Positions 51,213 to 60,254 of a DNA stretch of 64,000 nucleotides are shown here, in pieces. Source of the DNA: Eledone cirrhosa (Eukaryota); contig OZ024740.1 in the NCBI GenBank assembly GCA_964016885.1, positions 185,690,001 through 185,754,000 on the forward strand. Reading direction: 5' to 3'. The position numbers were made by a program, and so were the translations under genes. The number at the start of each line of letters is the position of its first letter. Position 1 is the first letter of the stretch. The notes beneath the pieces are model-generated. The model made no database searches. It saw only the letters and a program-made list of their open reading frames with translations, and had not been told where the DNA came from.

Positions 51213-52820
51213 CTTTGAGTCTCAGTCATTGATGTTAGTTAACTGGAAATTTTGTTGAAATGAATATCAAGCCACTACCTGCAGCCTCAGATATTCAGAA
51301 CGTATCGGAGGGTTCTTGCTGTTCCCAGCAAGCATGCCTTTTGAAGCGTTCCAAAAAACGTGAAGGGGCCAATTTTCTTTAACCATCCCTGGAAACTTTT
51401 TCAGATAGTCCCTAGTGCGCCTATGACAATCGGGATCACTTTGACTTCATAGCAGTTCCAACTCCTTTTTACCTCCCACTTTAATCCTGGTATCGGTTAA
51501 TTTTCTCCCTCTTCTTCTCTTGCACTCTCGTGTCGAATGGGCAGGCCACATCCACAATCAGGCACGATCTTTTTTCTTTGTCCAAAACCACCAGGTCAGG
51601 TCTATTGTGTTCCAGTTTCTTGTCCGTCTGTATCCTAAAATCCCACAGCACCTTCACCTGATCGTTTTCTATCACCGACTCTGGCTTATGCTCATACCAC
51701 TTCTCAGAATGTGGTAAATTGTTTATTTTGCATAGGTGCCAGTGGATCACCCTGCCCATCACATAGTGTCTCCAGCCCTTATAGTGAGTCTGGGCTAGGT
51801 GTTTACACTCGGATACAATGTGAGCCACAGTCTCCTCTCTCTCTCCACAGATCCTGCATAGTGGGCTAGCCTCCTCCTTGTAAATGTGGTGTTTCAACCA
51901 CTTCGTTTTGAGGGCCTGCTCCTGCGCAGCCATTAACTTTCCTTCTGTAGCCTTTTTAAGGTCTCCTCTTTTCAACCAGTTCCATGTCTGTGGATCTCTA
52001 AATTCAGTTTTCTCAAAGAAGGTACTATGAAGGGATTTTTCCTGAAGGCTGCTCTTTCTCCTTGATGTTATTTCCTCCTTGGACATCCCCTGGCCTATTG
52101 TCCCCTCCTTCAGTATAGTTCTGAGCATTGGCTCCTTACTATCAGTCACGTATTTGTGTAGGTTGTTTTTCTCCACCTGAACACAGTCCTCTATGCTGAT
52201 AAGACCTCTTCAACCTTCAGATCTCCTTAAGTAGAGTCTATCGACATCACTCCTCTTGTGGAACATATTGTAGATAGTCAATAGCTTCCTAGTCTTCCTA
52301 TCCATTTCTTTTTTTTCAGCAACATTCCATCTCAGAATTCCCGCACTGTACCTAATAGTAGACACAGCTCGGGAATTTACTGCACCTATGGCATTCCTAC
52401 TGTTCAGATATGACTTTAATACGCTCCTTACTCTCCGAAGGTATTCAGTTCTTATCAATTCCTTCATTTTTTTGTTCTTGATGTCATCAGCCTCCAGAAC
52501 GCCCAAATACTTGTATCCTTCCTCAGAGTCAATTTCCTTTATCAGCTCACCTGTTGGTATCTGGATTCCGTTACTTCTGCTCAACTTACACCTCTTCATC
52601 ATAATGACTCCACACTTACTAATACCAAATTGCATACATATATCATTGCTGAAAATACGGACAGTGTCAACAAGCACATCCAACTCCTTCTCACTCTTAC
52701 CGAAGAGCTTAAGATCATCCATGAAGAGGAGGTGATTGATGGTAAGCCCTCCCTTTCCCAACCTGTATCCTGCTCTCATTTTCGCAGTACACTGGTCAGG
52801 GGCATCAGGGCAAGGACAAA

Positions 52821-52821
<1 letters not shown>
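51213..52821 (-). mobile_element. R4/Dong-like LINE copy C, distinct subfamily, 5'-truncated within RT
   Basis: INHLLFMDDLKLFG, FGISKC, YKYLG, CRICGEREETVAHIVSEC, NRPDLVVLD..VDVACP, IPIVIGALG; (TAA)n at both ends. Confidence 0.92.
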
Positions 52822-52864
<43 letters not shown>

Positions 52865-53085
52865 GGGCGCTGGATTGGTAGAGTCGTTAGCGCATCGGAC
52901 AAAATGCTTTGAAATATTTAGTTACGGTCATTTACTTTTTGAGTTCAAATTCCACTGAGGTTAGTTTTGCCTTTCGTGTTTACATGGTCGATAAAATAAA
53001 GTACTAGTATCCCACTGGGGTGATTTAATCGCCTTTTTCCTCTCCTTCAAATTGCTGGCCTTGTGCTTAAAGTAGAAACACTTAT
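52865..53085 (+). mobile_element. Full-length main SINE
   Basis: ggcgctggattggtagagtcg...gagttcaaattcc...ttgcctttc...aaattgctggccttgtgcttaaagtagaaac. Confidence 0.85.
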
Positions 53086-56379: not shown

Positions 56380-56975
56380 ATCGTTTCTGTTACCAAATAT
56401 GATAAATAAATCCGGCCATGTATTTGTTTTTTGTGTTGAAACAGATATAGTTATATTTGAGGAGGGTCATGTTTTCCTAATATTGCCAGAAAAAATTATA
56501 AACATCACACTCACTGTTTGCTCTGGTTGGGATTCGCGTCAGTATATTATTATATTTCTATTAATAATTTAACTGGCACTCAATGTTTATCATTGATTGA
56601 CCAACAGTTAAAAATATAAATAGAAGTGTAGTTTCTCAAAGTTCTTTCGGCATACATGTCAGAGACATCATCAGTGATAATCATATATCCATGTTTATGC
56701 TGGCCGTGTGGCAAAAGTAGAAACAATTATTTTAATTTAATTTATTTATTTAATGCTGTTGTCTCTGTGCATGCATTTGATAATCACTGATGATGTGTCT
56801 CCTGCAGCTTTATTACTAGTTATTAGATAAGGGTTATTCTGTCAAAGCTCTTTCCTCAAGCTTTCTGTGATCCATGTAATGACTATTTGTTTTTCTTGGT
56901 TCTGTCTCTTCGTCTTTTTGGTCTTATTCCGTTCAATCCATCTTGCCTTTCTGTTGTAAGTTTTATTTGCAAGAC
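56380..56975. pseudogene. Rearranged R4-like LINE relic
   Basis: Minus 56975-56790 reads YNRKARWIE..QEKQIVIT..KAAG (pre-RT region); short inverted segment 56661-56692 vs 56768-56802. Confidence 0.4.
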
Positions 56976-57167: not shown

Positions 57168-57539
57168 TATATTAATAAATGGAAACTATATTTATAAAAC
57201 CATATTTATTTTATTATACATATTTCAAGGGTCACCAGGTCAAATTATGGTGCGCTTTCATCAGATAAAATACATATTTGTTTTATAAATAAATATTGAC
57301 ATACATGGAAAAATAAATATATAAATAAGACAACCTTAACGGTTGGAGCTTCCTGGATAGACTATCTAGGAAGCTCCAACCGTTAAGGTTGTCTTTTTTC
57401 CCCGATATGTCAATATGTATTTATAAAACAAATCTGTATTTTATCTGATAAAAAGCGCACCATAATTTGCCTTGGTGGCCTTGAAATATGTATAATAAAA
57501 TAAATATGCTTTTATAATATAGTTTCCATTTATTATATA
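57168..57539. mobile_element. Fold-back hammerhead element, family 1
   Basis: Arms are reverse complements around a central 34-bp-arm hairpin (57327-57395, centre 57361); between (TA)n tracts. Confidence 0.9.
57207..57272 (-). ncRNA. Type-I hammerhead ribozyme motif, canonical core
   Basis: tattttat-CTGATGA-aag..cacca..tggtg..ctt-GAAA-tatgta-TA-ataaaata. The mirror copy at 57437-57502 (+) has CTGATAA. Confidence 0.75.
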
Positions 57540-57562
57540 TTGTATATATATAAATATAATTG

Positions 57563-58441
57563 TGTACACGCACATACATATATGTATACAGACGTACAGT
57601 AGTATGTATATGTATATACATACATTCACACATATATATATGTACGTATGGATTCACCGAACATTTATTATAATGCTCGGTGTGTTTGTAAACAAACATC
57701 CCGTATTAAGCCGTAGTGTCTAGCAACCATCGTTGCTCGTTTGTTCAACACTGACAAAGGAATGCTGTACTAGTTTCAAGCTTATTAGCTATCGTCAGCA
57801 ACGTATACCTTCCTGCCAGATTGTTGAACGTATATACTTACGTTATGCATATTAACGGCTGAGTAGCCCAATTTGCATATCGAGTGAGTTAATCGGCCTG
57901 GTGCACCGAAAACGATAAACGGAATAAATGAAACGAAATTTAATTTCCCACTCTTAGTACTGCTGTTACTTAATTATAAGTATGTACACGTACATACATA
58001 TATGTATACATACGTACAGTAGTATGTATATATATATACATACATGCACGCATATATATATGTACGTATGGATATCACCGAACATTTATTATAATGCTTG
58101 GTATGTTTGTAAACAAACATCCCGTATTAAACCGTAGTGTCTAGCAACCATCGTTGCTCGTTTGTTCAACACTGACAAAGGAACGCTGTACTAGTTCAAG
58201 CTTATTAGCTATCGTCAGCAACGTATACCTTCCTGCCAGATTGTTGAACGTATATAGTTACCTTATGCATATTAACGACTGAGTAGCCCAATTTGCATAT
58301 CGAGTGGGTTAATCGGACGGGTGCACCGAAAACGATAAACGGAAAAAATGAAACGAAATTTCATTTCCCACTCTTAGTACGGCTGGTACTTAAATATAAA
58401 TATGTACTAAGAGTGGGAAATGAAATTTCGTTTCATTTTTT
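57563..58441 (-). mobile_element. Tandem 420-bp hammerhead repeat (retrozyme-like), family 2, ending in a fold-back
   Basis: Units start at 57563 and 57983; terminal hairpin at 58343-58441; one HHR per unit. Confidence 0.9.
57762..57804 (-). ncRNA. Minimal type-I hammerhead ribozyme, canonical core
   Basis: gttg-CTGACGA-tagct aata agctt-GAAA-ctag-TA-cagc. The second unit (58183-58224) lacks one A of GAAA. Confidence 0.8.
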
Positions 58442-58473
<32 letters not shown>

Positions 58474-58477
<4 letters not shown>

Positions 58478-59393
58478 AAATAACGAAACGAAATTAAATT
58501 TCGTTTCGTTTGTAACTCACTTTTGTATGACTGACGCTTAAACAATTAAGTTAAAAATGTACATCTACATATGCATACTGAAATACTAGTGTGATATGAA
58601 TACACACACGTATACATATGTAGGTGTACCAAGTCTTTCACTGGTCGCTTTACAGTGAGCGGCCCAGCTATTCTGTATGTAAACACACAGACAAACCGGT
58701 TTTTAGAGTCATACTGGTTTTTCGGGGGAACACCTTCCCCCTATTCTCCAGAAAGCCAGACAAGGAATATTGAACTAGCTTCGTTGTTGTTACAACTCAT
58801 CAGCAATATTTACCTATCTACCGGCCTTTCTGGAGAATTGTAAAAGCACATATCGTTATATGCTTTTACTATGAAAATTAGTAGTGGGCAGACTAATTTG
58901 CATAGAGTGTGAGTACGCACCGGTTCAGCGGAGACGATAAAAACAAATAACGAAACGAAATTAAATTTTGTTTCGTTTCGTTATTTGTTTTTATCGTCTC
59001 CGCTGAACCGGTGCGTACTCACACTCTATGCAAATTAGCCTGCCCACTACTAATTTTCATAGAAAAAGCATATAACGATATGTGCTTTTACAATTCTCCA
59101 GAAAGGCCGGTAGATAGGTAAATATTGCTGATGAGTTGTAACAACAACGAAACTAGTTCAATATTCCTTGTCTGGCTTTCTGGAGAATAGGGGGAAGGTG
59201 TTCCCCCGAAAAACCAGTATGACTCTAAAAACCGGTTTGTCTGTGTGTTTACATACAGAATAGCTGGGCCGCTCACTGTAAAGCGACCAGTGAAAGACTT
59301 GGTACACCTACATATGTATACGTGTGTGTATTCATATACACACTAGTATTTCAGTATGCATATGTAGATGTACATTTTTAACTTAATTGTTTA
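58474..59393. mobile_element. Near-perfect palindromic hammerhead element, family 3 (467-bp monomer + inverted copy)
   Basis: Arms 58539-58960 / 58972-59393 differ at about four positions by eye; direct repeat aaacaaataacgaaacgaaattaaattt at 58474 and 58941; flanked by (TA)n. Confidence 0.93.
59121..59165 (+). ncRNA. Minimal type-I hammerhead ribozyme, fully canonical
   Basis: aatattg-CTGATGA-gttgt aaca acaac-GAAA-ctag-TT-caatatt, within a longer stem ttctccagaaag/ctttctggagaa. The mirror copy at 58766-58810 (-) has GAAG. Confidence 0.88.
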
Positions 59394-59419
59394 TATATAT
59401 ATAATTATATATATATATT

Positions 59420-59484
59420 TCGTTTCTGAATTTGTTTAGCAAGATTCTTTATCTGAAATCGTGTATAACAATATATATATATAC

Positions 59485-59559
<75 letters not shown>

Positions 59560-59623
59560 CGTTTCTGAATTTGTTTAGCAAGATTCTTTATCTGAAATCG
59601 TGTATAACAATATATATATATAC

Positions 59624-59625
<2 letters not shown>
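59420..59625. repeat. ~55-bp direct repeat separated by (TA)n
   Basis: cgtttctgaatttgtttagcaagattctttatctgaaatcgtgtataacaat at 59421 and 59560. Confidence 0.9.
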
Positions 59626-59654
<29 letters not shown>

Positions 59655-60254
59655 CATATGTGTGTGTGTGTTTGTGTGAGAGTATGTGTGTGGGCGTGTG
59701 TGTGCATGTGTATGTGTGTGAGTAGAGAGTGGGAGTGAGAGGGAGACAGAAATAGATTCATGCTTGTGGTTCAATAACGTATATTTTTCAATACAACCAT
59801 TCATTAAATGTGTATTGTTTCATATACACTTATTAGCGTAAAAGGAAGGGGGCTACACACACATACGCGCCCTTGCATATACCTGCGTATTCCTGTGTAT
59901 GCGTATATGTTCATTTTATTTGAAATATCCTGTGAGCTTTTCTACTCTTGATATTCAAATTGTGTATGGGATTTTATGGGAAAAACGTTATGGCTTTTAT
60001 TCTCTATGTATTTAGTTGAAGTCCTGTGGAGCTTACCGTTGCCTTTGATCATGTTGAGAACAATAAAGTAAGCATTAAGGATCTACTCGACACAATTCCT
60101 CCGACTATAAACCACTCCTAAAAATGTGTGGTGTGTGTCAATGTTATCAATTAACTTTCGCTATCTTTAGCCATTCAGTTGTCAAAAATGTAGGAATGAA
60201 TATTCAACAGTCTATTCAATGAAACATATCAACCCCTCTAAATTGGGTACATAC

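Follow-up and report, generated by a model that had tools for sequence, protein, structure and literature searches.

A short sequence module is shared by two families of hammerhead-bearing repeats, F2 and F3, that lie side by side in a 64,000-nucleotide (nt) stretch of the 3.0 Gb genome of Eledone cirrhosa (hereafter the window, to which all coordinates refer), where positions 57400-59600 were read directly. Judged from their sequences, F2 and F3 are collinear sister families of one hammerhead retrozyme, an element of a known kind, the animal retrozyme, and the module is the best-kept stretch of their units outside the ribozyme. We favour, with a probability of roughly 55%, the reading that the module is a composite of two signals. 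The first, TTTCGTTTC..TTTAT|CGT, belongs by its sequence and position to a Penelope-type tail and a fixed insertion end. The second, TATGCAAATT(A/G)G with a TATA-like box 34-35 nt further on, lies on the hammerhead sense strand and would be a promoter box like that of the host U6-type genes.

A preliminary description of this locus had proposed that the module is an internal promoter and/or a recognition site for a helper reverse transcriptase/endonuclease. Both proposals gain support at the sequence level, each for a different half of the module, and a generic octamer enhancer is not upheld.

Fixed insertion ends and the tail half of the module

Genome searches gave at least 747 candidate places for F3 and at least 1239 for F2. 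The best 40 candidates of each search were scored, yielding 119 F3 matches (97-100% identical) and 68 F2 matches (94-97% identical to the window copy), and the counts of genomic anatomy given here come from the resulting 60 retrozyme loci. These counts are biased to young copies, because only top-scoring candidates were scored. In the 60 loci, F2 and F3 units form head-to-tail runs and head-to-head pairs, always in (TA)n.

When unit position 1 is set at the first base after the TTTAT of site B, the ends of the matches fall almost entirely at two sites per family. Among 83 F3 match ends, 56 are at 465-468 and 26 at 394/399 (82/83 together, with a single end elsewhere); among 105 F2 match ends, 77 are at 404-414 and 23 at 354-357 (100/105, with five elsewhere). 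Starts follow a different pattern: F3 matches begin at position 1 in 44 cases and at scattered positions in 39, and F2 matches begin at the unit boundary or anywhere across the unit. Junctions read directly give site A as ..AATTGTTTA|TATA in F3 and ..ACATACTTATAT|ATAT in F2, and site B as ..ATTTGTTTTTAT|ATAT in F3 and ..TTCCGTTTAT|ATAT in F2. (TA)n follows directly at 20 A and 20 B ends of F3, plus a few TA-like variants, and at 18 A and 14 B ends of F2. From this junction count, 59 F2 rows classed as 'other' at site A were excluded as stray anchor matches in the palindromic TA/CA part of the unit.

In both families site B is TTTAT|CGT, a motif of the module as first described, and the 58-68 nt between A and B form a tail that contains AATTTCGTTTC. 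At the canonical F3 junction, a 14-bp palindrome, AACGAAACGAAATT T AATTTCGTTTCGTT, stands just before B, and AATTTCGTTTC makes up its 3' half (palindromes were read off the sequence directly and, for F2, by eye). In the plus arm of the F3 insertion of the window, the tail half of the module occupies 58964-58997 (+) and consists of the 3' half of the tail palindrome (AATTT(T)GTTTC), a T-run and the B boundary TTTAT|CGT (58990-58997, +); its equivalents on the minus strand are at 58934-58962, 57912-57940 and 58332-58360. Words close to AATTTCGTTTC are concentrated here: at one mismatch or fewer the window holds 11, against 2.12±1.39 expected, a number that none of 100 shuffles reached, and 10 of the 11 fall within 57930-59426.

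The two ends are combined in a strict manner. A is the tail-less end and B the tailed end, and the outer ends of two-armed insertions pair one A with one B in 16/16 F3 and 13/14 F2 cases that could be resolved (29/30 in total); two further F3 two-armed cases run beyond the locus and were not counted. Both insertions of the window follow this pairing. According to the accessible text of Craig et al. 2021 (PMC8557442), the hallmarks of Penelope-like elements are strong 5' truncation, partial tandems and an inverted 5'-truncated copy beside the 5' end, together with a tail of 30-40 bp at one end only, and (TA)n is a preferred target of the Naiads among them. F2 and F3 agree with this description: their 3' ends are fixed while the 5' truncations vary, units recur in partial tandems next to an inverted copy truncated at its 5' end, and the insertions, made in (TA)n, carry a tail at a single end, longer here than 30-40 bp. 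TTTAT|CGT thus stands at a fixed end of a Penelope-like footprint, and is therefore likely to be a start or a resolution site of reverse transcription. On this reconstruction, the tail half of the module would likely be the signal at which copying starts or an intermediate is resolved.

The position of the module next to B would also suit a signal that acts in the RNA, where the entire module, octamer included, would serve reverse transcriptase binding, circularisation or stability, and transcription would come from read-through or from an unrecognised promoter. Both the adjacency to the fixed end B and the 14-bp palindrome just before B in the canonical F3 tail are in its favour. We nevertheless consider it improbable: the octamer never occurs in the terminal extension, because the copied tail reaches no further than B and the octamer lies 33-36 nt beyond it, and the match of the module to host promoters would have to be a coincidence.

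The octamer box and the promoters of host small-RNA genes

The octamer ATGCAAAT is present where it had been claimed, at 57871-57878 (-), 58291-58298 (-), 58896-58903 (-) and 59028-59035 (+). These four copies in the module are among ten in the window, where the word as such is not enriched (10 against 6.85±2.24 expected; 11/100 shuffles hold 10 or more). The spacings of the preliminary description are likewise confirmed. The distance from the start of AATTTCGTTTC to the start of the octamer is 62 nt in both F2 units and 59 nt in the F3 minus copy (64 nt in the F3 plus copy, because of five extra bases at the fold-back), and CTGANGA starts 80 nt (F2) or 100 nt (F3) after the start of the octamer, consistent with the approximately 80-100 nt given for the ribozyme core.

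The host genes used for comparison comprised the distinct upstream regions of 12 U1, 5 U2 and 7 U5 genes (330 nt each), as well as U6, U6atac, RNase MRP and 7SK. Their promoters split into two clean classes, U1/U2/U5 on one side and U6/U6atac/RNase MRP on the other (loci L061-L119). The U1/U2/U5 class, of the RNA polymerase II (Pol II) type, has an ATCAGTG-type box at about -55 and a TATA-like word at about -30. In the other, type-3 class, five promoters were compared (two single U6 genes, the U6 array, RNase MRP and the best U6atac gene), and all five have a box T-ATG[CG][AT]AAT-[GT]AG whose first base is at -76 to -78, a TATA at -30 and 38-40 nt from the one to the other. A far element, TTACCTCCCTTGA, is found at -254 to -271 in 12/12 U1, 3/5 U2, 2/5 U6 and 0/7 U5 upstream regions.

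The retrozymes carry a box that matches the proximal box of the type-3 class. It reads TATGCAAATTAG in F3 and TATGCAAATTGG in F2, some F2 copies having ..TTAGG. With a position weight matrix (PWM) made from the five host boxes, the top hit in each retrozyme unit was the octamer, on the sense strand, with scores of 16.1 (F3) and 11.7 (F2); the host boxes themselves score 20-24, and none of the 123,804 other positions of the window (both strands) reaches 11.7. Over the 560,152 bases examined, a 12-mer regular expression matched F2/F3 copies and the U6, MRP and U6atac promoters of the host, and otherwise just one further place. By both approaches, the retrozyme box agrees with the host type-3 proximal box in sequence and in sense orientation, and its spacing is roughly that of the host genes as well.

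In the F3 plus arm, the box matched in this way (CTCTATGCAAATTAGCCT) lies at 59024-59041 (+), with minus-strand equivalents at 58890-58907, 57865-57882 and 58285-58302. It is followed, 35 nt past the octamer, by the TATA-like box TATAACGA at 59071-59078 (+), whose F3 equivalent is at 58853-58860 (-); in F2 the corresponding word is TATATAC, 34 nt past the octamer (57830-57836 and 58250-58256, -). By host geometry, the predicted start of transcription is about 22 nt past the TATA-like word, which in F3 is at about 59101, 27 nt before CUGAUGA, and in F2 just before CUGACGA. In the 270-290 nt downstream of the predicted start, to near the end of the element, the sense strand is free of runs of four or more T. 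The octamer half of the module is thus predicted, from sequence and geometry, to be a promoter of the RNA polymerase III (Pol III) type aimed at the hammerhead.

The preliminary description had seen in the octamer a POU/Oct element of the kind used in small nuclear RNA (snRNA) and histone promoters, and in its strongest form this would make it a POU/Oct-bound enhancer of a Pol II promoter of the snRNA or histone type, similar to what newt satellite 2 is reported to have. Such a role agrees with the perfect ATGCAAAT word of each of the four copies and with newt satellite 2 itself, cited in the accessible text of PMC2220036 as driven by an snRNA-type Pol II promoter. In the host, however, an octamer-like word is missing from all 24 U1/U2/U5 upstream regions, so that it is no distal element of the Pol II snRNA genes there, and the proximal box of these genes is a different one. 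Together with its flanks (T..ATGCAAAT..T(A/G)G), the retrozyme octamer makes up a box of 12-18 nt that matches the U6/U6atac/RNase MRP box, and the far element at about -260, which accompanies U1 and part of U2 and U6, is missing from the retrozymes. A Pol II enhancer of this kind therefore seems quite unlikely, and we retain the type-3 promoter box as the preferred reading of the octamer half.

Several small-RNA sequences of the host are themselves associated with repeats. Fourteen singleton U6 matches were rejected as promoter-bearing genes: none has the box at -76 to -78 (one has it at -276), and several lie in TA or other repeats, so that they look like retro-copies. U6/U6atac look-alikes at five loci (L125, L128, L129, L137 and L121) abut (TA)n or lie inside (TA)n-inserted repeats and have no promoter, which suggests that they are small-RNA retro-copies made by the same insertion machinery. 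In a U1 array (L071, C2:180.97 Mb), an F3 copy with its octamer box is located about 1.3 kb upstream of a U1 gene.

Kinship of the two families and layout of the locus

F2 and F3 had been presented as otherwise different families, a view that their alignment does not bear out. The units (420 nt in F2, 468 nt in F3) are collinear over their whole length, their parts coming in one and the same order, and a global alignment puts their identity at 59%; MAFFT gives 50%, compared with 31.5±6.6% (maximum 42%) for 20 shuffles of F2. GAAACUAGU, the palindromic GAAACTAGT and the hammerhead core are common to both. Identity is unevenly distributed along the MAFFT alignment: 66% in the last 41 nt (tail hairpin and site B), 62% in the next 29 nt, 78% in the 18-nt octamer box and 58% in the hammerhead, against 37-50% in the remaining segments. 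The two families therefore do not align equally well over their full length, and the module is kept better than most of the unit.

Variation among copies is less telling. The octamer is more constant than its surroundings, the F2 box being about 2.4 times less variable than its 30-nt flanks (0.0185 vs 0.045) and the F3 box invariant, but it is no outlier among 8-nt windows. Box and hammerhead are the least variable parts of F2 (0.018-0.019 vs a unit mean of 0.034), and the CpG-rich tail is its most variable part (0.077), yet among the best kept between families. Since copies decay after insertion, a test of the octamer within families tells little either way.

Common descent could in principle account for all of this: F2 and F3 would have diverged from one ancestor, the module would have changed less by chance, and the octamer and tail motifs would have no role of their own. 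The homology and collinearity of the units throughout, the ordinary variability of the octamer within either family, the availability of two families only, and the presence in the same tracts of other hammerhead families that lack the motifs are all compatible with this view. It is however unlikely, in our estimate, given the two independent landmarks on which the kept blocks fall: the precise boundary of insertion, TTTAT|CGT, on the one hand, and the host type-3 box, in the right orientation and with a TATA-like word after it, on the other. Moreover, the tail is well kept between families although it is the part that changes most within F2.

The composite of a Penelope-type end and a U6-type box thus remains our preferred reading, against which several observations weigh. 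On the promoter side, the distance from box to TATA in the retrozymes (34-35 nt) is 3-6 nt short of the 38-40 nt of the host, the TATA-like words TATAACGA and TATATAC are weaker than the host TATA, TTACCTCCCTTGA is absent from the retrozymes, and the only 7SK match, a weak one (45.1 bits), has no octamer box. Pol III would terminate at the T runs of 5-7 in or near the tail, short of a complete unit, so that read-through has to be assumed. As regards conservation, 176/406 8-nt windows in F2 and 271/460 in F3 are as invariable as the octamer or more so, and runs of 10-11 identical bases are expected about 0.1-0.2 times each in a pair 50% identical, a rough estimate for two families only. No third family with the module was found in the 60 loci, and the other hammerhead-like families there (at least five core types inspected) have neither the octamer nor TTTCGTTTC within 260 nt upstream. 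On the tail side, the 3' ends of seven Penelope-like families (from 24 GIY-YIG loci of 10,595 candidates) showed no significant likeness to the tail, so that in this small sample of seven families no autonomous partner shares its 3' end with the retrozymes. The best local score was 23, against 20.7±2.7; higher F2 scores reflect TA/CA-rich low complexity.

One of these Penelope-like ends (..ATTTCGTTTT.., ..ATCGTCTC.., ..TGTTTTCA|TATA) looked tail-like by eye, and was dropped when local alignment against shuffles proved not significant. Copies bearing GIY-YIG are very abundant, as the 10,595 candidates indicate, and in 19 of the 24 loci (L139-L162) a (TA)n run occurs within about 0.4-1.5 kb after the Penelope-like copy; the commonest GIY-YIG family among them ends ..CCCTGTTTTCA|TATA. 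A hammerhead-like core of another type, CTGATGA..CGAAAG followed by AACTTTGAG, is found in the window at 56644-56674 (-) and in loci L014 and L016. The repeat family around this core is a different one, which likewise ends in (TA)n; octamer and TTTCGTTTC are both missing within 260 nt upstream of the core. This may be the 'family 1' of the preliminary description.

At the locus itself, two repeat insertions are placed tail to tail within 57400-59600, separated by a (TA)13 run. The F2 insertion has a long arm of two 420-nt units and a partial tail (57555-58391, -), read from the sequence and recovered by Tandem Repeats Finder at 57551-58407 (period 420, 2.0 copies, 94% matches), with a 3' end of type A at 57555 (-; ..ACAATTATAT|TA-rich). 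It folds back at about 58392 into a short inverted arm (58404-58447, +), which holds the tail only and stops at site B (..TTTCTTTAT|ATAT), the same B end as in 14 genomic F2 ends. A remnant of the (TA)n target (58448-58473) lies between the B ends of the two insertions. The inverted repeat of F3 consists of a minus arm (58474-58965, -), with one unit, a tail and a 3' end of type B (..ATTTGTTT|ATAT), and a plus arm (58966-59393, +) with a 3' end of type A (..AATTGTTTA|TATA). Together they form a palindrome with arms of 372 nt (58594-58965 and 58966-59337), 99% complementary and centred at 58965/58966.

Both families had been said to fold back at or near the module, and in this window they do. 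This is not the rule in the genome, where the inner break points are scattered across the unit: the 60 loci contain 18 F3 and 14 F2 head-to-head junctions, and F3 turns at the tail palindrome in 2/18, this window included. Genomic arrays reach at least six units, for example on C5 at a spacing of 468. No stop-to-stop frame of 150 or more amino acids overlaps 57400-59500. In contigs of four runs of unknown kind, variants at 10% of depth or more concentrate at 59191-59310, and the octamer variant 59034 A>G amounts to about 1% of depth in X1 and to 4.27 of 24.1 in X6 (likewise contigs, from runs of unknown kind).

Each family has one copy with an intact hammerhead core by pattern match, at 57773-57798 (-) in F2 and at 59128-59153 (+) in F3, with the core words CUGAUGA or CUGACGA, GAAA and a GUH site. 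The sister copies are altered: the second F2 copy (around 58165-58235) has lost one A of GAAAC, giving GAAC, and the F3 minus arm has CGAAGC in place of CGAAAC. The putative type I hammerhead of F3 extends over 59110-59181 (+), with its mutated twin at 58750-58821 (-), and matches the Rfam family HH9 at 38.6 and 35.3 bits; the F2 hammerhead (CUGACGA..GAAACUAGUA|C, 57745-57816, -) is a weak HH9 match, at 15.4 bits (E 0.17). All are below the gathering score of 52, and Rfam at gathering scores gave no match in the entire window. In the HH9 alignment, helix I of F3 (AUAUUG/CAAUAU) is a perfect 6 bp beside the core, helix II (GUUGU/ACAAC) has 5 bp and helix III is the palindrome ACUAGU. The predicted cut is GUU|C between 59158 and 59159; a cut at the GUC of 59172 was dropped, the alignment's site being the one that gives the perfect 6-bp helix I. 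From these features, the F2 and F3 hammerheads are probably of the small, dimer-forming kind described for Penelope-like elements and amphibian retrozymes in the accessible text of PMC7229834.

Other repeats surround the two insertions. A near-perfect hairpin of 69 nt with arms of about 30 bp (57327-57395) matches several microRNA models at relaxed thresholds, mir-3202 among them at 42.9 bits against a gathering score of 90, and is probably a repeat fold-back rather than a microRNA gene. Matches to microRNA families at relaxed thresholds elsewhere in the window were similarly rejected as fold-backs and TA/CA palindromes. Beside the A end of F3, a 100-nt stretch (59421-59520) has a second copy, 97% identical, 139 nt further on (59560-59659), the two being separated by (TA)n; in reverse complement, the stretch is similar to the end of a further (TA)n-inserted repeat, in locus L051. 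Further upstream, two adjoining open frames at 51481-52917 (-) match reverse transcriptase and zf-RVT weakly (E 3e-4 and 1e-3, neither reaching the Pfam cut-off) and are a decayed element of the long interspersed (LINE) type, not a Penelope-like one.

Proposed cycle and comparison with known systems

If the two halves of the module act as proposed, the following cycle can be envisaged. The Pol III-type promoter, box and TATA-like word, would start transcription about 22 nt past the TATA-like box, toward the hammerhead, and transcription would continue across two units or more. RNA of unit length would then be released by the hammerheads, which probably act as dimers formed through the ACUAGU palindrome. 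This RNA, linear or circularised, would be copied into both ends of a (TA)n break by a Penelope-like enzyme starting at A and B, the tail half (AATTTCGTTTC and TTTAT|CGT) being the place where this enzyme, a Penelope-type reverse transcriptase/endonuclease, begins or resolves its copying. Since the promoter would be situated upstream of the start that it serves, only copies of more than one unit would carry it forward, a need that fits the tandem habit of F2 and F3.

A bolder extension, which we put forward only tentatively, is that each unit may be a complete Pol III type-3 gene (U6/MRP box, TATA, hammerhead transcript and T-run) joined to a Penelope-type start. Its external promoter would be inherited because copying goes on for more than one turn of the RNA, multimeric or circular, beginning at the two fixed starts and running into both ends of a (TA)n break. 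If this were true, F2 and F3 would be a natural record of Penelope-type enzymes priming on both DNA ends and, among Pol III genes with an upstream promoter, the first known case of spread by retrotransposition. The strict rule of one tail-less and one tailed end constrains models of Penelope-type target-primed reverse transcription.

For the transcription of animal retrozymes and the enzyme that inserts them, two testable handles are offered by this rule and by the short box-plus-TATA arrangement, of the same kind as in the host U6/MRP/U6atac genes. Should the promoter reading hold, it would account for the high, tissue-wide expression of retrozymes reported elsewhere, and would provide a compact natural cassette, a small-RNA promoter with a self-cutting ribozyme, for cephalopod-type genomes. 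Should it fail, the octamer would be part of an ordinary conserved block in two sister repeats. As far as our literature searches went (mostly titles and abstracts), the promoter box and the strict pairing of A and B ends are apparently not in print for invertebrate retrozymes.

Among known systems, the metazoan non-LTR retrozymes (LTR, long terminal repeat) are the closest. Like those described in the accessible text of Cervera and de la Pena 2020 (PMC7229834), F2 and F3 are non-coding and of high copy number, and their 420- and 468-nt units agree with the pattern of short (150-450 bp), AT-rich head-to-tail repeats in many copies. The same text regards Penelope-like elements as the strongest candidate for the helper that animal retrozymes would need, and its accessible parts give neither a promoter nor an anatomy of the insertion ends. 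What sets F2 and F3 apart from this description, judged from their sequence, is the pair of fixed 3' ends, the tail confined to one of them, the insertion into (TA)n and a candidate promoter box resembling that of the host. A derivation of vertebrate retrozymes from Penelope-like terminal repeats has been argued from phylogeny (Li, Clavereau and Pollet 2026, bioRxiv 10.64898/2026.07.22.740005); in the accessible part of that preprint the words promoter, octamer and tail are all missing.

With Penelope-like elements and their non-autonomous derivatives, as far as the accessible texts describe them (PMC8557442; 10.64898/2026.07.22.740005), F2 and F3 have in common the partial tandems, the inverted 5'-truncated copy, the tail at one end and the bias to (TA)n, as well as a hammerhead of the kind with a small palindromic helix III. 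They differ in the lack of an open reading frame, in a tail of 58-68 nt instead of 30-40, and in 3' ends that resemble none of the seven families sampled.

Two hammerhead repeats with promoters of their own complete the comparison, both as cited in the accessible text of PMC2220036. Newt satellite 2 (Coats, Zhang and Epstein 1994) is likewise a tandem repeat with a hammerhead and its own promoter of the small-RNA-gene type; that promoter is cited as being of the Pol II snRNA type, whereas the box of F2 and F3 matches that of the Pol III class of the host (U6, U6atac, MRP) and not that of U1/U2/U5. For the schistosome hammerhead satellite (Ferbeyre et al. 1998), the transcription is stated to be by Pol III and to come from inside the repeat. 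In contrast, the candidate promoter of F2 and F3 is an upstream box-plus-TATA of type 3, which a retro-copy would keep only if more than one unit were copied. The schistosome promoter is reportedly internal, of the tRNA-like A/B-box kind.

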